Positions 1 through 18,532 of a stretch of 19,283 bases of DNA are shown here, piece after piece. Below the pieces are notes generated by a model, which made no database searches, had not been told where the DNA came from, and saw only the letters and a list, made by a program, of their open reading frames with translations. The DNA comes from a virus: UHGV virus genome UHGV-1601451; one strand, given 5' to 3'. The position numbers were made by a program, and so were the translations under genes. Every line of letters starts with the position of its first letter. Position 1 is the stretch's first letter.

Positions 1-209
1 TCAATCGATTCAGAGATCTCTAACGCATCATCGACTTCAATGCCCAGATAACGGAATGTGCTTTCCAGTTTCTTATGACCCAACAGAAGTTGAATCACCC
101 GAAGATTCTTGGTCAGCGGACAATAGGTGCAACGCCATATTGAACCCTTAAGACTAAAGTGGACCGATATAGTAAGCGTTACACTGGCCCATTGCCAGCA
201 TCGAAATGC
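1..209 (-). pseudogene. tyrosine recombinase (phage-integrase family) C-terminal fragment; N-terminal part missing; 3' end runs off window start
   Basis: Minus-strand frame is open from 209 down to position 1, bounded upstream by an in-frame TAG at 210-212, with no long minus-strand ORF in 212-447. Translation ...PLTKNLRVIQLLLGHKKLESTFRYLGIEVDDALEISESI has the LLGH-x(6)-T-x-RY box-II pattern around the catalytic Tyr of tyrosine recombinases. Only about 70 codons are present. Confidence 0.5.
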
Positions 210-393
210 CTAAGCTACGAAAACTCTTTGACGGACATAATGTTCCTCATGTTTGCCACATGTCTCCGATTGAGCACAACTATAGTCTGCTGATGAGACT
301 AATTATGGCACTGAGCAGACCTGCTCGCTAGGCGAGATCCGCTGTGAGCGAATTGCAGAGGTCTCGAATATGCTTGATCATAATGCTTGAAGA

Positions 394-399: not shown

Positions 400-486
400 T
401 GGTATGAGCCTGAAAATTTATTTTTAAAGAATTATTAAATACTGCCGATGTTAATAATTACACTAAAAAAAAGGAGCATGAAATTT

Positions 487-984
487 ATGTTAAATTTAGA
501 CGAAATGTGCAGCGCATTAAGAAAACAATACTCTATAACGGCTGGTCAAGATGGTGAGAAATATGCTAGTAGATGGCTGGAAAAATCCAAGTGGAAATTT
601 GAACATGTTGAGCAAGGAATAAATACCTTATCTGCAAACTTGAAATCGTATGGGAGGAAACGCCCCGATTTTATTATTGACATTGACGAATCCTCTTATA
701 TTCTTTTAGATGCGAAGTATCACTCAACAGATGGGTGTACCTCCTTTACACTTACTGATTGTGAAATAGGAAAATATAGAGCACTTCAGCAATTCTTAAA
801 AAATGTGTATAGTGATTGTACTTTCGAAGTAGTCTTTATGGTGTTTCCGAAAGAAAAAAATGGTGACGAATTTACATTTGTGAGTCTAGATGAGTTTGAT
901 AAAGGAGAGTGTACGACTCTAGCATCAAAAGATGCAACGAAAATTAGTCTACTCTATCGAGATGACTTATGGTTTAAAAGTTGA
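487..984 (+). CDS. small PD-(D/E)xK nuclease-like protein (restriction-endonuclease / NERD-like core), AT-rich cargo gene
   Basis: ORF in track as 448..984. Start at 487 preferred because AGGAG (472-476) lies 10 nt upstream; the ATG at 478 is only 1 nt from the SD and 448 has no SD. Translation has an acidic helix (GEKYASRWLEK) followed by RPDFIIDID...SSYILLDAKYH, i.e. a D ... D-x-K arrangement with nuclease-like spacing. Codon composition is much more AT-rich than the flanking phage genes. Opposite strand to the late operon. Confidence 0.7.
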   Translation: MLNLDEMCSALRKQYSITAGQDGEKYASRWLEKSKWKFEHVEQGINTLSANLKSYGRKRPDFIIDIDESSYILLDAKYHSTDGCTSFTLTDCEIGKYRALQQFLKNVYSDCTFEVVFMVFPKEKNGDEFTFVSLDEFDKGECTTLASKDATKISLLYRDDLWFKS

Positions 985-1326
985 TTAATAAAAAACAATT
1001 GGCTTTCACCATTTTTAATTACTTTTCCCAGCATGCCGAAAATGTCTCATTTATTTGAATGATTGTATCTTTAATAGATATATCGCGACTATTCCTAAAC
1101 TTATTTCTAGTTGTTAACAAAACTGTGTGCTATGAATGTCTGCTGTTGGCACATAGCAGTTCTAGAGACAGTGGCGTAAAGTCATGGAGAATCGGTGGAA
1201 GGAGGTGCAAACCCTCTCATACAAAAATGCGTAAAATCAGTAACGGCTGGAAATCATTCAATACTCGCACTATCAAAAGTTCACCAGCCAACCGCGACAC
1301 CTCCTGCATACGACATGTCTGCGGTT

Positions 1327-1881
1327 TTATATAACCCTGGCTGGAAACCTCTTATACAAAGTTGACACACCAACATCATAGATAATAGCCACCTTCTGGC
1401 GAGGAACGCCTGATGCAATTAATCGCCCGGCCTGCGCCCATTGTTCTGGTGTAAGTTTGAGACGACGTCCACCAATTCGTCCCTGTGCGCGAGCAGCTTC
1501 CAGTCCAGCTTTTGTTCGTTCAACAATCAGTTCTCGTTCCATTTCAGCCAGGGCACCCATCACATGAAAGAAAAAACGCCCCATCGGTGTGCTGGTATCA
1601 ATAGCATCCGTCAGGCTGCGAAAATTAACGCCACGTTCGCGCAACTCCTCAACCAGAATGACCAGATGCCGCATACTACGCCCCAGCCGATCCAGCTTCC
1701 AGACAACCAGAGTGTCACCTGCCGATAATGTCCTGAGCAGTTTTTTCAGTCCCGGCCTTTCGGACTTTGTGCCGCTTATCTTGTCTTCAAAAATCAGCTC
1801 GCATCCTGCACAGTTCAGCGCATTACGTTGTAGATCTGTGTTCTGGTCATTTGTTGACACACGTACATAGCCAATAAGCAT
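1327..1881 (-). CDS. pin: DNA invertase, serine recombinase of the Gin/Pin/Hin/Cin family
   Basis: Translation from the ATG at 1881, MLIGYVRVSTNDQNTDLQRNAL...VVWKLDRLGRSM...MGRFFFHVMGALAEMERELIVERT...GRIGGR, matches the resolvase/invertase catalytic domain (active-site Ser in RVSTNDQ) plus a C-terminal HTH. AGGGAG SD 7 nt upstream of 1881. The 12-codon extension in the track ORF (to 1917) is not supported. Confidence 0.93.
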   Translation of the reverse strand: MLIGYVRVSTNDQNTDLQRNALNCAGCELIFEDKISGTKSERPGLKKLLRTLSAGDTLVVWKLDRLGRSMRHLVILVEELRERGVNFRSLTDAIDTSTPMGRFFFHVMGALAEMERELIVERTKAGLEAARAQGRIGGRRLKLTPEQWAQAGRLIASGVPRQKVAIIYDVGVSTLYKRFPARVI

Positions 1882-1935
1882 GGTAGATCTCCCTGACAAA
1901 AGCAGGAATGATGCCATTTGCTCGTTATTTCTGCA

Positions 1936-1961
1936 TTTTCATAAACGTTGGTTTGGGAGAA
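1936..1961. repeat. gix/hix-like 26-bp recombination crossover site (right site), between invertase start and invertible segment
   Basis: TTTTCATAAACG-TT-GGTTTGGGAGAA: two 12-bp half-sites around a 2-bp core. The inner half-site is a perfect inverted repeat of the inner half-site at 3797-3808. The core TT is the reverse complement of the AA core at 3809-3810. Confidence 0.8.
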
Positions 1962-2300
1962 GCGGCCAAATTGCCTGCGATTAGTGGCTCTTTATCATCA
2001 TCTGGCTGGATAAAAATCCCTGTTATAGAGGGGAAGTCTTTTATTATCCAATGGGGAAGAATCGGACCTTCTGATAGTAAAACTGGTGTTGCAACAGGAA
2101 GTTATCCTATTGCTTTTCCAAATTCTGCATTTATGGCATTTATTGCTGAAAAAACCGCAGTATCCACAGGCCCAATAGGTATTAATTCCTGGGGAGTATC
2201 CGAACTAACAAAAACAGAATTAAAGGCCATTTGTGCTGCAAGGACTATATCAACTTCAGCCGCAACTGAAACAGGTGATTTTCTGGTACTGGGATATTGA
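1950..2300 (+). CDS. alternative tail-fibre C-terminal variable part (Sv'-like), no own start; expressed only after inversion as a fusion to the constant N-terminal part
   Basis: The frame is open through the right crossover site. GGT TTG GGA GAA (GLGE) at 1950-1961 is in frame with the downstream ORF ...AAKLPAISGSL...IIQWGRIG...LVLGY, stop at 2298-2300. The same GLGE codons occur in the minus-strand fibre gene at the left site, so inversion gives an in-frame fusion. Confidence 0.75.
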   Translation, partial: GLGEAAKLPAISGSLSSSGWIKIPVIEGKSFIIQWGRIGPSDSKTGVATGSYPIAFPNSAFMAFIAEKTAVSTGPIGINSWGVSELTKTELKAICAARTISTSAATETGDFLVLGY

Positions 2301-2320
2301 GCTTCCATAAGGATTATAAA

Positions 2321-2770
2321 ATGTCGAGCATAATATACTACAGCTCTATAAATAATGCATTTTACCCTGAGCATTTGAAACAAGAATATATTAAATCTAA
2401 TTCTTTTCCAGCAGATGCAAAACCCGTTAAATATTCTGTTTTCGAAGAATTTGCACTTAAACCAGCACCAGAAGGAAAATACAGGTGCGTTGGTGAAGAT
2501 GGAATGCCATCATGGGCAGATATTCCACCACCAACACATGAGGAACAGATTGCCGCAGCCGAATTGAAAAAGCAGCAATTGATTAACCAGGTCAACGAAT
2601 ACATGAACAGTAAACAATGGCCCGGTAAAGCGGCTATTGGTCGTCTGAAAGGTGAGGAACTGGCGCAATATAATCTGTGGCTGGATTACCTGGACGCACT
2701 GGAAATGGTCGATACTTCCAGTGCTCCAGATATTGAATGGCCTACGCCTCCGGCAGTTCAGGCCAGATGA
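2321..2770 (+). CDS. tail fibre assembly protein (Tfa/U'-like), cognate to the alternative fibre tip
   Basis: MSSIIYYSSINNAFYPEH...DTSSAPDIEWPTPPA has a typical Tfa N-terminus and the conserved C-terminal D-T-S-x-A-P-D-x-x-W-P motif. AAGGA SD 7 nt upstream of the ATG at 2321. The track ORF begins at a TTG at 2297. Confidence 0.8.
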   Translation: MSSIIYYSSINNAFYPEHLKQEYIKSNSFPADAKPVKYSVFEEFALKPAPEGKYRCVGEDGMPSWADIPPPTHEEQIAAAELKKQQLINQVNEYMNSKQWPGKAAIGRLKGEELAQYNLWLDYLDALEMVDTSSAPDIEWPTPPAVQAR

Positions 2771-3344
2771 CATCTGGCGCGGTGCTGGTATCAGTTGCCG
2801 TCACCGCGTCAATGTAATCCAGCACAGCGTTAAGGCGGGTTGTTTCTGTCTGCGTCAGTTTACGTCCGGCCTGCAATTTCAGTTGAATCAGACTGATGGA
2901 AGCCATAGCAGCATCAATCAGATACTGGCGCTGTGCTTCTGCCGCTTCTACTGCGGCGCTATGCTGTGCCTCAGTATCCGTCACCCATTTCTCACCATCC
3001 CATTTATCGTATGGCGTTAATGGGGCGATAGTGGTTGTATTATCAGGGTAATCACCCGGAGCTGTGATTTCTTTTGATTCTCCTGTTTCGGTGCTAAAGA
3101 CGATTTCACCGCGATGGTCTGGCACATATTCCCATGAGTTAAAATCTGCAGAACGGCAGATTGCATAACCAGCTTTGTATGCGCCTGGAGCATCTAAACA
3201 GGAACATGCCGGAATGCCGACACCAACGGCAAGATATTCAGTTGATATGGAAATATATTCCCGTGTTTCACCATCATAATTATAGACAGTAATATTCCCC
3301 GCCTTCGTGGCAATAAACTCGCTATTTAATACAGCGCTATCCAT
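2742..3344 (-). CDS. tail fibre assembly protein (Tfa/U-like), cognate to the currently expressed fibre tip
   Basis: 200 aa ending ...LDYIDAVTATDTSTAPDVIWPELPEA, the conserved Tfa C-terminal motif. Start ATG overlaps the fibre stop (TAATG). Its 3' end overlaps the convergent Tfa' gene by 29 nt. Confidence 0.85.
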   Translation of the reverse strand: MDSAVLNSEFIATKAGNITVYNYDGETREYISISTEYLAVGVGIPACSCLDAPGAYKAGYAICRSADFNSWEYVPDHRGEIVFSTETGESKEITAPGDYPDNTTTIAPLTPYDKWDGEKWVTDTEAQHSAAVEAAEAQRQYLIDAAMASISLIQLKLQAGRKLTQTETTRLNAVLDYIDAVTATDTSTAPDVIWPELPEA

Positions 3345-9160: not shown

Positions 9161-10996
9161 TTACCTGCCAAAGCGCGTATAGCCAACATCATGGCTGACA
9201 TCAAAACCGCTGGATCGCGTTTCCATAACCCGCATACCCGGAGGCGAATTCACAAAAGAGACCTTGATCTCACCATCAACTTTTGGCGCAGAAGCTTTGT
9301 TAATCATGAAGGGATTCGGGCCTGTGGCATCGGAGGCGTTGTTTGACTGAGCCGGATCTACCGCCTGATAAGGTGTGTATCCCCGTGCCGGTATTCCCGT
9401 CCCATAAGCATCATAAGCACCCGCGCCCCACTGCGCAGAGTTAATGACATCGACCGTGTCACCGGAACTGTCGGTAAACCACTCAATAATTGGCTTCAGC
9501 TTGTCCCACATATCCTGAAACCACTTAACAACCGGTCCCCAGTTATTGATTACCATCCCCAGCGGCGACCAGGCAAAAACCTTCTTCAGAAGTTCCCAGC
9601 CAGCCTCAAAATAAGGACCAATGGTTTCCCAGAGCTTCTTGAAATAAGGTCCGACAACATCCCAGTTAGTGATAATTAATCCCGCAGCCAGGGCTATCGC
9701 CGTCGCAATCATTCCAATCGGCGTCATCGACATGATCCTGCTGACAATACTGATGGCACCGCCAACGCCCATCAATCCCAGTTTCAGAATCGCAAAACCG
9801 GCAGCAAGCCCGACGACGCCGCGAATAACCCGGGGATTTTCATCCGCAAACTTCGTGAATTTTTCCCCTAACTCCCCCAGCCATTGCGTGATATTTTTGG
9901 CGTCACCAGAAAATGCGCCGCCAATAGCCGCAAGGCCGTTAGTTGCGGTCCCCGTCATTGCCTCCCACAGGTTGGACAGCGTACCAAGCTGGGCCTGAAC
10001 ACGTTTATTCAGGCTGGCCTGTTTATTCATCTTCTGCTGGATCTGATCGTAACCATCTTTTCCTTTATCGATCAGAGCATTGACCACCTGAAGGGTTTCA
10101 GCATCATCACCAAATATTGCCTTAAGTACACCGGTTCGCTTAACGTCGGTCAGTTTTCGCAGCTTTGCCAGTTGCCTGAACATGTTATCAAGACCGCCAA
10201 AACTCCCTTTGCCGTCAGTAAAATCGAGCTGCACTCCGAGTTTCTGGCGGGCCATGACTTTATTGACGTCCCTGATTTTCTTAACGCTTAATCCGGACTG
10301 GATAACTTTTCGCAGGGCATTACCTGCCGACTCCCCGTTCATCCCCATCTGATCCATCATGACGCTGATAGGGGCAAGGCTCTGTGCAGCCTGAAGACCG
10401 TCCTTATTCACCATCTTCAGAACAGAACTGGTTTTAGTGAAGAAGGACAACATGTTGGTATCGTCAACGCCCAGATAAAACGCCTTCTGGATAGTGTCGA
10501 ACAGCCCCATCATGTCTTCTGACGCCGTTCCGGTAGCATCCTGCATCTTTGCAGCAAACTCAGCAGCCGCTTCTGGTGTTTTTTTCAGTTGTACCGCAAG
10601 ATAAGCTGTCGCTTTACCCACACCACCCAGAATGTTTTCTGCCGGGATCCCCTGACGCACCAGCATCTGCATCATGTTCTGGAAATCAGCCGTTGTACCG
10701 GGTAGCTGGTTACCCAGGCCAATAGCCAGTTTATTGATGTCCTGAAAGCGCTTTCCAACCTCGCCGTTCGCATCCATCATGGCGACTTTCAGCCCGGTGG
10801 CGGCGTTTTCCTGATCGGCATAAGATTTCAGGGAAAGCGTCAGACCCGCTGCCAGTCCGCCACCAAGCGCCAGCCCACCCTGTGACGCTTCTTCCGCCTG
10901 GCGTTTAAATCCCCGGATTTTCTTTTGCATTTTCGACAGCGCCGGAGAAAGCCTGTCGACACCGGTGATCAACGCCTTAAGCTCAAATTCAGCCAT
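9161..10996 (-). CDS. tail tape measure protein
   Basis: 611 aa, helical and Ala/Gly/Leu-rich with a Trp-rich C-terminal region. Located directly after the frameshifted chaperone pair and before the baseplate genes. Confidence 0.85.
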   Translation of the reverse strand: MAEFELKALITGVDRLSPALSKMQKKIRGFKRQAEEASQGGLALGGGLAAGLTLSLKSYADQENAATGLKVAMMDANGEVGKRFQDINKLAIGLGNQLPGTTADFQNMMQMLVRQGIPAENILGGVGKATAYLAVQLKKTPEAAAEFAAKMQDATGTASEDMMGLFDTIQKAFYLGVDDTNMLSFFTKTSSVLKMVNKDGLQAAQSLAPISVMMDQMGMNGESAGNALRKVIQSGLSVKKIRDVNKVMARQKLGVQLDFTDGKGSFGGLDNMFRQLAKLRKLTDVKRTGVLKAIFGDDAETLQVVNALIDKGKDGYDQIQQKMNKQASLNKRVQAQLGTLSNLWEAMTGTATNGLAAIGGAFSGDAKNITQWLGELGEKFTKFADENPRVIRGVVGLAAGFAILKLGLMGVGGAISIVSRIMSMTPIGMIATAIALAAGLIITNWDVVGPYFKKLWETIGPYFEAGWELLKKVFAWSPLGMVINNWGPVVKWFQDMWDKLKPIIEWFTDSSGDTVDVINSAQWGAGAYDAYGTGIPARGYTPYQAVDPAQSNNASDATGPNPFMINKASAPKVDGEIKVSFVNSPPGMRVMETRSSGFDVSHDVGYTRFGR

Positions 10997-17313: not shown

Positions 17314-18532
17314 TGGCGTTATCCTTCTGCTTACCGGCTTTACTGCCATCGGAGGGTTTCGTGGTCATGTTCATCGGTGTGAGATAGACATCACCACCGG
17401 GACGTGGATTCATATCTTCCAGGTCGCGGCAGTCATTGGGAGAGTAAATTCCCCAGTTGATCCCGGTGGCGTAGGCTTCAAAACGGGACTTCATATCCCC
17501 GCGCAGTAACGCCCCGGCGTTAAATTTGGCGTAATAAACGCCCTGCTTACTTTTTCGTACCAGTCCGGTGTTGATCCGCTGTTCGATGCGGGTCAGATAC
17601 GGCACCAGTGAATAGTTGATAAATCCCAGCCCCAGCTCTTCGATATTGTTGAAGGTGGCGCGATCGGTGTTCTGCACCATGTGCAACGGCACCCGGAACA
17701 GACGACAGATTTCTTCAAGCTGAAACTTGCGGGTTTCCAGGAACTGGCTGTCCTCGGCGTTCAGCGCCATCGACTTCCAGTCCAGCCCCATCTCAAGGAT
17801 CATCGGGCGGTGAGCATTGCCAAGCCCGGTGTGACGCTCCTCAAAATCTTTCTTCAGGCGCTCATAAGCCTGATCTGACAGCGTCTGCTCTGTACGCAAC
17901 ACACCCGACGTCACCGCGCCATTGCTGAACAGTCTGGCCCCGTGCTCTTCGGTCGCTGCCGCCAGCGATATTGCCTCGCGGGCATAGGCGATGGGATTCA
18001 GCCCCACCAGTCCGTCCAGCGTCAGCGTGCGCACATGCCAGATATCCTCTTGGCTCAGTACATCCGTGGAGCCATCCGGGAATGTGACCTGATAGACCGG
18101 CTCCCAGCTACTGTTAAGCTTCGGTACCACACAGCCGGGATCGACGGGCAGCAGTTCAGCCACTTCGCCAAATGCTTTCACTTTGTAGGCGTAAAAGTTT
18201 CCCCGCAGGCACAGACAGGTGACCACCAGCTCCCAGAACTCCTGCGGCGTCATATAGCCATTGGGATGCGTGGAGATCAGCTTATGCAGACGTTCGCCAG
18301 TGGCTCTCTGCTTCAGGCTGCCGTTCAGGTGATACAGGTTGCAGGGCAACATCCCGACCGACTCCGCCAGCACCCTGACACAGGAAAAAACCGCCGTCAG
18401 TCGCATGGCCCGCTGGCTGCTGATCTGCTTTCCGGTATAGGTGTCGTAGGACAACCCGATAGCATCCGCCAGCTCTGCTGGCGTGGTCACCGGTGCGTCA
18501 CTTTTTCGTTGAAATAATCCCGAAAAGAACAC
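17291..18532 (-). CDS. portal protein, HK97 family
   Basis: 413 aa with N-terminal FFSGLF...AMRLTAVFSCVRVLAESVGMLP, typical of HK97-type portals. GTG start at 18532 with GGAGG 6 nt upstream, overlapping the stop of the small membrane ORF. Confidence 0.9.
   Translation of the reverse strand: MFFSGLFQRKSDAPVTTPAELADAIGLSYDTYTGKQISSQRAMRLTAVFSCVRVLAESVGMLPCNLYHLNGSLKQRATGERLHKLISTHPNGYMTPQEFWELVVTCLCLRGNFYAYKVKAFGEVAELLPVDPGCVVPKLNSSWEPVYQVTFPDGSTDVLSQEDIWHVRTLTLDGLVGLNPIAYAREAISLAAATEEHGARLFSNGAVTSGVLRTEQTLSDQAYERLKKDFEERHTGLGNAHRPMILEMGLDWKSMALNAEDSQFLETRKFQLEEICRLFRVPLHMVQNTDRATFNNIEELGLGFINYSLVPYLTRIEQRINTGLVRKSKQGVYYAKFNAGALLRGDMKSRFEAYATGINWGIYSPNDCRDLEDMNPRPGGDVYLTPMNMTTKPSDGSKAGKQKDNANADETTS

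Follow-up and report, generated by a model that had tools for sequence, protein, structure and literature searches.

The window analyzed here is the whole 19,283-nucleotide stretch of the virus genome UHGV-1601451, and our subject is the fragment of a tyrosine recombinase gene found at its very start. The window is 100% identical to positions 3947701–3966983 of Escherichia coli UPEC_U013 (NZ_CP058596.1), where it belongs to a 41-kb lambdoid, e14/SfV-type prophage that carries a Mu-like tail module and is located at thrW. The genes of this prophage include those for terminase, portal, capsid, sheath, tube, tape measure, baseplate, tail fibers, and the pinE invertase. The recombinase fragment (hereafter the stump) lies in low-GC cargo (35–40% versus ∼55%) between the tail-fiber/invertase module and attP, with a Ppl/TrlF gene on one side and a nuclease-like gene on the other, in agreement with the first-pass annotation of this DNA, which had suggested an AT-rich cargo island as one possible origin of the fragment. 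The reading frame that contains the stump is composed of two parts:

Positions 1–113, minus strand: 3′ stump of a small (200-residue) tyrosine recombinase, residues 162–198; the last two codons and the stop codon lie 1–9 nt past the window start.
Positions 114–209, minus strand: read-through extension that is not recombinase-derived and forms part of an orphan segment.

The first-pass annotation had described a minus-strand frame open from position 209 to the window edge, with a TAG behind it at 210–212, and had interpreted it as the remnant of a truncated tyrosine recombinase. The frame is present as described (reading ...TKNLRVIQLLLGHKKLESTFRYLGIEVDDALEISESI; the full reading of its 71 residues is ...CPLTKNLRVIQLLLGHKKLESTFRYLGIEVDDALEISESI), and comparison with intact genes supports the interpretation. 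When the intact 200-residue homologue WP_023147793.1 (E. coli AMA1167; L004 5997–6596) was used as a tblastn query, residues 162–200 alone aligned, at 97.4% identity (39/39 aligned). At the DNA level the fragment is 92–97% identical to intact genes annotated as “site-specific integrase” in ∼855 of the 5426 complete E. coli genomes, and this similarity ends sharply at position 113. The conserved DNA block as a whole extends from 51 nt left of the window start to position 113, is sharp at both edges, and in the alignment with intact genes reaches ∼50 nt beyond the stop codon. No similarity to intact recombinases was detected for positions 114–209, at either the DNA or the protein level, and this sequence is confined to the present phage lineage, where it occurs in 13 E. 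coli genomes and one circular copy.

Since the homology stops at 113, positions 114–209 represent unrelated read-through, and the stop codon at 210–212 does not mark the truncation point; the break, which had been placed at 209/210, is moved to 113/114 by comparison with the intact homologues. At the opposite end, the frame terminates in the source genome two codons past the window (...ESIEV, then the stop codon), which is the same end as in the intact homologues, and the C terminus of the stump is thus complete. The earlier suggestion that the C-terminal end lies beyond the window therefore holds, by two codons, while the doubt it expressed about completeness is removed. The N-terminal part had been reported as absent, and indeed a tblastn search (E≤10) in all frames recovered no N-terminal piece, frameshifted or otherwise, from the window, from L001 8001–13300 (which takes in the 4 kb upstream), or from the remaining prophage.

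Scored by itself, the 71-residue frame stays below the PF00589 cutoff (12.5 bits, E = 0.13; cutoff 27.1); the intact homologue, and with it the parent gene, belongs to the family (63.9 bits, E = 2e-17). The identity of the stump as a recombinase hence follows from its near-identity to intact genes and not from a Pfam score. A box II motif (LLGH...Y) is present at its C terminus and aligns to that of the intact members and of XerD. Because the stump starts at residue 162, it lacks the complete catalytic set R-K-H-x-x-R-H/W-Y and retains two of the six catalytic residues, the box-II histidine H174 and the tyrosine Y183, so that it cannot be an active recombinase. It has already accumulated amino acid changes, namely V to F beside the catalytic tyrosine and one further change in the copy from L002. 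The stump is, in short, the non-functional last 39 codons of a 200-residue, catalytic-domain-only tyrosine recombinase and an ordinary pseudogene fragment. RefSeq annotates a 34-residue coding sequence here (GTG at position 98) as “hypothetical protein” or “integrase,” a label that is misleading for such a fragment.

The intact parent protein consists of a catalytic domain only: PF00589 spans residues 35–184 of its 200 residues, neither an arm-binding nor a core-binding domain is present, and the catalytic residues are R51, K79, H148-x-x-R151, H174, and Y183. Its best-scoring named relatives are XerA (54.6 bits) and XerC (44.7 bits), for which the equivalog cutoffs are 220–335 bits, and the integron-integrase models score lower still (TIGR02249, 17.2 bits, cutoff 265; NF011946, 17.6 bits, cutoff 435). 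The closest solved structure is XerD, with which the H-x-x-R, His, and Tyr motifs align. PADLOC and NCBIfam give no specific family for this small recombinase. The family nonetheless comprises at least 8000 clusters at 90% identity, all under generic names; the best 120 of these at least 8000 related clusters are all ∼200 residues long with PF00589 alone, and at ≥60% identity the family extends through the Gamma-, Beta-, and Alphaproteobacteria. A relation to K-12 intK/ydfW, of which the gene would be the intact form, was rejected, as the ydfW translation is unrelated and tblastn of the Qin region returned nothing.

Three thrW phages from IMG/VR (L021, L023, and L025) carry an intact gene at the position of the stump, flanked by the same pin module and att region, and a fourth locus, L045, has a longer remnant there (residues 100–200). 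The genes flanking the intact recombinase in these related phages are variable and defense-like (PD-T4-3, an Mrr-type nuclease, an MTES-type nuclease, a dCTP deaminase, and DUF4365), and the flanks in other E. coli genomes are likewise variable, including for example a HEPN protein, an ETEC_3214-family protein, and a dynamin-like system. Strains ABU 83972 and AMA1167 are examples that have the gene intact. The recombinase gene itself forms a 700–718-bp unit inside a junction, with a degenerate B-type site (defined below) 63 nt before the ATG and a hairpin plus half of an A-type site after the stop codon.

Several further features of the intact genes were recorded. The Shine-Dalgarno sequence and start codon are covered by a perfect inverted repeat of 15 bp whose halves are 9 nt apart (CATACTCAAATCTCC N9 GGAGATTTGAGTATG), at L004 6594–6632 and in ∼30 other loci (e.g., L025 3965–4003). 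We considered this palindrome as a lox-like site and rejected it, as each locus has a single copy and none is found elsewhere; its role is probably that of a hairpin in translation or autoregulation, not in recombination. In several loci the small recombinase is present twice, as copies or remnants arranged in tandem or divergently (L036 1237–1824 and 4001–4588; L020 5897–6118; L043 1131–1351; L083 ∼9794–10486). In UPEC_U013 (NZ_CP058596.1) three places match the stump region, and there are hence two more copies of the recombinase 3′ block, which are possibly intact genes able to act in trans. Independent remnants occur in many viral contigs with varying truncation points (residues 25–102, 100–200, 157–200, 170–200, and 179–200), and decay of the small-recombinase gene is recurrent.

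The loci that carry this recombinase also contain a repeated 24-bp palindromic site, GTCYGCT-N10-AGCRGAC, built from 7-bp inverted arms around an asymmetric 10-bp spacer. In the A-type site the spacer is YTGTGCCAGR; the B-type site is the inverted variant, with the spacer YTTCGCTCAW. The two types are often paired in a 66-bp composite junction (B-type site, 18 nt, A-type site) that aligns across loci. The ∼47 nt beyond the recombinase stop codon comprise a hairpin with a 9-bp stem and then TGTGCCAGGAGCGGACGT, with variable DNA directly after. This 3′ hairpin is stable (−27.4 kcal/mol, z = −3.7) and has no U-tract, and no intrinsic terminators were predicted around the stump. A motif after the stop codon, G(G/T)GCCA-N3-GC(R)G(A/C)C, corresponds to the right two-thirds of the 24-bp site and persists in homologues at 60% identity from other orders across the Proteobacteria, although the sequence of the hairpin varies between homologues. 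A second copy of the motif in the window, at 1136–1153, compares with 0.01 expected by chance. Read in the sense of the recombinase gene, that is, from high to low coordinates, the window holds the following sites:

Positions 1138–1161, minus strand: A-type site, AACTGCT ATGTGCCAAC AGCAGAC, at the border of the conserved pin/tail-fiber module and the variable cargo.
Positions 285–360, minus strand: composite cassette junction, which aligns with the canonical B-18-A junctions of other loci.
Positions 337–360, minus strand: B-type site, CTCTGCA ATTCGCTCAC AGCGGAT, followed by a 16-nt linker to the A-type site.
Positions 285–320, minus strand: A-type site, GTCTGCT CAGTGCCA...AGCAGAC, whose spacer has an insertion of ∼12 nt.
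Positions 115–121, minus strand: perfect 7-bp arm, GTCCGCT, one base (G114) from the start of the recombinase homology.

Four of the eight GTCYGCT copies in the 19-kb window fall in its first 1.15 kb. Beyond the window edge, in window-relative coordinates, the hairpin and half A-type site occupy −13 to −50 and a further B-type site lies at −2957 to −2979. Homology to other phages resumes at 1132–1139, i.e., at the A-type site, and related phages have the same A-type site at the same boundary (L021 2383 and L025 2766). All three boundaries at which this phage departs from its relatives coincide with sites. An attempt to place the arm at 115–121 within a junction by alignment gave no decision, since MAFFT accommodated it as either A-type or B-type. 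By eye, a possible degenerate B-like site could be made out at ∼144–167, for which we make no claim.

The sites are far more frequent near the recombinase than expected. Nine loci contained 26 sites, compared with 2.4 in shuffled sequences, and 80 GTDB loci contained 75 sites compared with 17, the latter signal coming mostly from Enterobacterales together with some marine Gammaproteobacteria. Sites that could be typed were oriented as the recombinase gene in ∼36 cases and against it in 3. A 75-nt junction query matched 861 of the 5426 E. coli genomes, in one to three places each and always between genes, and in the listed examples the junction was 2–3 kb from a recombinase gene. Across 58 loci, 83 of 457 distinct homology breakpoints fell inside a site, where 4.3 were expected and the maximum in 200 randomizations was 10. 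One cassette of 1.57 kb (97% identity) precedes the recombinase gene in L027 but follows it in L092 (Providencia), and in both loci it begins right after the right arm of an A-type site and ends at the left arm of a B-type site. Literature searches returned no description of the small recombinase or of the 24-bp sites, a negative result that does not prove novelty.

A single degenerate A-type site (GTCCGCTTTGTGCCAGGAGCAGCC) is also found in the Qin prophage of K-12 (L008 4982–5005), inside the ydfV open reading frame beside relBE. There is no small recombinase near it; the same Qin region in strain AMA1167 holds a recombinase and a site array.

Taken together, we consider it likely that a deletion of ∼539 bp killed the recombinase of a site-bounded cassette array in the defense cargo of this prophage. 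In the related phages the intact recombinase sits in an array whose single-gene cassettes have co-oriented 24-bp sites at their ends. The arm at 115–121 would come from the B-type site located before the recombinase gene, as its left arm, and would mark the left endpoint of the deletion; the geometry of the intact loci, with the B-type site 63 nt before the ATG, gives a deletion of ∼539 nt. Such a deletion would have taken the B-type spacer and right arm, the start region, and codons 1–161, and would begin at the arm/spacer boundary of the B-type site. Tyrosine recombinases cleave at the arm/spacer boundary. From the background density in the window, the chance that a GTCYGCT arm abuts a given breakpoint is ∼1e-3, and on account of this endpoint we favor a deletion mediated by the recombinase itself. 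In its simplest form, this would have been an aberrant event in which the true site recombined with a weak secondary site inside the gene for the recombinase, and the 24-bp sites would be the normal substrates of the enzyme.

The retained hairpin and half-site would still border the Ppl/TrlF cassette, and the array in the stump lineage would be frozen unless recombinase were supplied in trans. The same cargo is found in 13 E. coli genomes from varied hosts, in four IMG/VR contigs, and in the circular copy of the phage, whereas the cargo differs among the relatives with an intact recombinase, which are few. The uniform cargo of the stump lineage fits a frozen array, although the sample is small. 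The first-pass annotation had proposed that the stump is a footprint of how the cargo was acquired; it is plausibly a footprint of cargo exchange, at a place that is no island or integration boundary.

Several observations weigh against the deletion model set out above. The connection between recombinase and sites is drawn from sequence comparison, and the similar genome totals for the junction (861) and the recombinase 3′ block (855) are totals, not a per-genome overlap. The B-type reading of the arm at 115–121 follows from the order of sites in other arrays rather than from alignment, which was ambiguous in MAFFT. The putative secondary site is a weak match (CCAAGA versus CCAGGA, 3 nt out of register), which leaves room for an ordinary illegitimate deletion. 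Distant homologues yield few full sites with the strict site pattern. Finally, an enrichment of breakpoints in the sites would also be expected if conserved linkers were used by homologous recombination.

The weak secondary site and the enrichment of breakpoints both bear on an alternative that we regard as unlikely, though as the strongest of those considered: an ordinary illegitimate deletion or cargo replacement, with the 24-bp palindromes acting as conserved linkers or hairpins for homologous recombination and the recombinase having some unrelated role. Site-to-site sharing of cassettes, like the breakpoint enrichment, would follow from recombination in conserved linkers, and the composite junctions, at 66 bp, have a length that suffices for phage recombinases, as is established for Red/RecET-type systems. 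The poor match of the secondary site within the gene is also more comfortable here. The form of the sites argues the other way, as they are built like the core sites of tyrosine recombinases, with 7-bp inverted arms and an asymmetric 10-bp spacer, and they are co-oriented with the recombinase gene. Genome totals for sites and recombinase are about equal, and a half-site remains fused to the 3′ end of the gene across the Proteobacteria even as the hairpin sequence varies. The sites occur on both sides of cargo genes and so are not simply terminators, and the deletion endpoint abuts a perfect arm, for which the chance is ∼1e-3.

Much less probable is a scheme in which the intact family consists of FimB/FimE-like invertases that switch adjacent cargo, the stump being a dead phase-variation switch. 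The 200-residue, catalytic-domain-only build matches FimB/FimE, and the A- and B-type sites are mutually inverted and bracket each cassette. The tyrosine-type DNA invertase model NF007371 does match the intact protein (E = 2e-6), but at 27.5 bits against a cutoff of 222, which places it outside FimB/FimE. Moreover, none of the cassettes in the 58 loci turned up in both orientations with respect to the recombinase gene; the same cassette was found at different array positions instead. No fimS-like pair of inverted repeats surrounds the intergenic region downstream of the intact genes.

We give still less credence to the possibility that the stump is left over from an integrase that inserted the cargo island or a decayed element and so marks an old chromosomal boundary, which is how the first-pass annotation had tentatively read it. 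The prophage has its own intact integrase (372 residues), which abuts tRNA-Thr (thrW) beside proA, 37 kb to the right of the stump. The opposite att copy, 40 bp identical to the 3′ end of thrW (L001 8732–8771; window-relative −3229 to −3268), lies 3.2 kb to the left of the window start, so that the stump is well inside the prophage. No tRNA genes were found in L001, and no att repeat adjoins the stump. In addition, a circular record of 41,492 bp (CP085522.1; L003), named “plasmid p4D31-5,” contains the same phage with a contiguous attP at ∼18076–18216, and there the stump stands between pinE and attP, on the phage side of attP. Because the stump is contained in both the prophage and the circular phage genome, it does not sit at a chromosomal island boundary. 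Nor does the parent protein resemble such an integrase, for which an N-terminal arm/core-binding region and a length of ∼330–450 residues would be expected, while the intact homologues have 200 residues and neither domain; they also occupy the same internal position in related phages. What speaks for a boundary is that decayed integrases are found just outside the prophage (L001 8237–8572 and 1373–1516), as would fit tandem accretion at thrW.

These outside fragments are genes distinct from the stump and deserve a separate description. The first (L001 1373–1516, also given as 1373–1527) is an integrase 3′ end near yagU, 93% identical to the 3′ end of the prophage integrase. The second (L001 8237–8572) is an N-terminal integrase fragment with an Arm domain that directly adjoins the att copy of the prophage. 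They lie on either side of an island carrying the vat autotransporter (toxin) gene, which indicates successive insertions at thrW. As for CP085522.1, it was deposited as an E. coli plasmid with sparse annotation and is probably an excised or replicating phage, not a plasmid.

Least probable of all is that the 34-residue frame annotated by RefSeq encodes a functional small protein, or that the fragment is a target end duplicated by insertion into a recombinase gene in the manner of the att-site duplication of a gene 3′ end known for e14 in icd, as the peptide retains just two of the six catalytic residues, neither the prophage nor 12 kb of flanking DNA contains the gene or its 3′ end a second time, and the stump has already changed in its amino acid sequence.

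The remaining features between the stump and the conserved phage genes are as follows:

Positions 122–284, no strand: orphan non-coding segment of 163 bp, between the composite junction and the recombinase junction.
Positions 448–984, plus strand: cargo gene of 178 residues (RefSeq start at 487, 165 residues), a RefSeq hypothetical protein with a PD-(D/E)xK-type motif, RPDF...LLDAKY; GC ∼35%.
Positions 1327–1917, minus strand: pinE-type serine DNA invertase (RefSeq), which matches phage invertase genes and is the first conserved phage gene beside the cargo.

The orphan DNA (searched as 114–337) had no match in collections of E. coli genomes outside this phage lineage, plasmids, or phages, and belongs to no Rfam family; the segment at 122–284 may be a short or decayed cassette. 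The motif of the 178-residue protein was read from the sequence; the protein gave a weak match to RmuC (E = 0.003) and no PADLOC or NCBIfam family match. Its homologues in two viral contigs (L013 and L014; 66–72% identity) are encoded beside DUF3800, AbiV, and SMODS genes. The 178-residue gene is a candidate anti-phage nuclease or defense gene. In L013, DNA homologous to this nuclease-like cassette (361–1137) is 75% identical, spans from site to site, and stands in an unrelated context. On the far side of pinE, the invertase is accompanied by opposed tail-fiber and tail-fiber-assembly genes (1908–2770, plus strand; 2742–3344, minus strand), so that 1327–3344 has the usual arrangement of the invertible host-range segment of Mu/P1/e14-type phages.

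A gene for an anti-phage ATPase of the Ppl/TrlF family (L001 9134–11887; window-relative −2866 to −113) lies left of the window and is convergent with the stump. The intact copy from strain IZSBS22 (L002 5134–7887), a single open reading frame of 917 codons, matches the family (NF045780 TrlF_fam_ATP, 651 bits, cutoff 350; PADLOC Ppl, 5e-157), and its score against the Ppl equivalog NF042955 (630 bits) is under the cutoff of 1000. In UPEC_U013 the gene is annotated as two coding sequences, a PHP-domain protein and a TrlF ATPase, and this copy probably carries a frameshift.

Integrons are among the closest known systems. As in an integron, a tyrosine recombinase stands beside a polar array of mostly single-gene cassettes that is rich in defense genes and in which cassettes shift position, and the content recalls integrons, chromosomal ones included, that store anti-phage cassettes. 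The junctions, of ∼66 bp with two inverted sites, are imperfect palindromes in one orientation, as those of integrons are, a resemblance only, because the cores differ from attC: read from the sequence, they have no RYYYAAC/GTTRRRY cores. The recombinase, with 200 residues, no core-binding domain, and no IntI-specific insertion, falls outside the IntI clade. Cassettes here flank the recombinase gene on either side, the gene itself being inside a junction, and the cassette genes are found in either orientation, each with an upstream region of its own. The array is hosted by a temperate phage or island, and the apparent mobility of its cassettes is deduced from comparison of loci.

The pdif modules of Acinetobacter plasmids share with this system small cargo modules that are shuffled among replicons and are placed between short palindromic sites of the tyrosine-recombinase type in alternating orientation. 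They use the host XerC/XerD and 28-bp sites (11-6-11), with modules flanked by inverted XerC/XerD sites, while the sites described here are 24 bp long (7-10-7), are not related to dif in sequence, and co-occur with a dedicated small recombinase. FimB/FimE are alike in their size of ∼200 residues, their restriction to a catalytic domain, and a weak profile similarity, and differ in that the scores are far under the cutoffs, that no invertible promoter element is present, and that no cassette takes both orientations. The XerC/XerD/XerA resolvases include the best-scoring named relatives and, in XerD, the closest solved structure, but the protein studied here has no N-terminal core-binding domain, is carried on mobile elements, and is accompanied by no dif-like site. 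Lastly, the location between tail-fiber genes and attP, in a phage that integrates at thrW and with variable defense-related content, is that of the moron or defense hotspots of prophages near attP (SfV-type gtr; P2/P4); the published descriptions searched mention no resident small tyrosine recombinase and no 24-bp sites bounding the cargo.

A wider reading, which we advance tentatively and hold to be somewhat less probable than its opposite, is that the stump is the dead recombinase of a previously undescribed, integron-like system defined by a 200-residue family, cognate sites, reshuffled single-gene cassettes, and a self-inflicted truncation. Within this joint reading, and as tentatively as the whole, the catalytic-domain-only recombinases (at least 8000 clusters) would be a widespread component of such systems in the Proteobacteria. 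With the same reserve, the single-gene cassettes, many of them anti-phage, would be carried in temperate phages, islands, and plasmids. It is plausible that the site-bounded cassette organization constitutes a new variant of integron-like or pdif-like systems.

The pattern of interest is thus an unnamed small tyrosine recombinase resident in a defense hotspot of temperate phages, with sites that bound each cargo gene. If the recombinase does act on these sites, it would provide a testable mechanism for the gain, loss, and reshuffling of genes in prophage defense hotspots, and would explain why 13 unrelated E. coli strains carry identical cargo while relatives with an intact recombinase differ. 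The recombinase and its sites together would then also serve as a sequence signature with which new defense genes could be mined.

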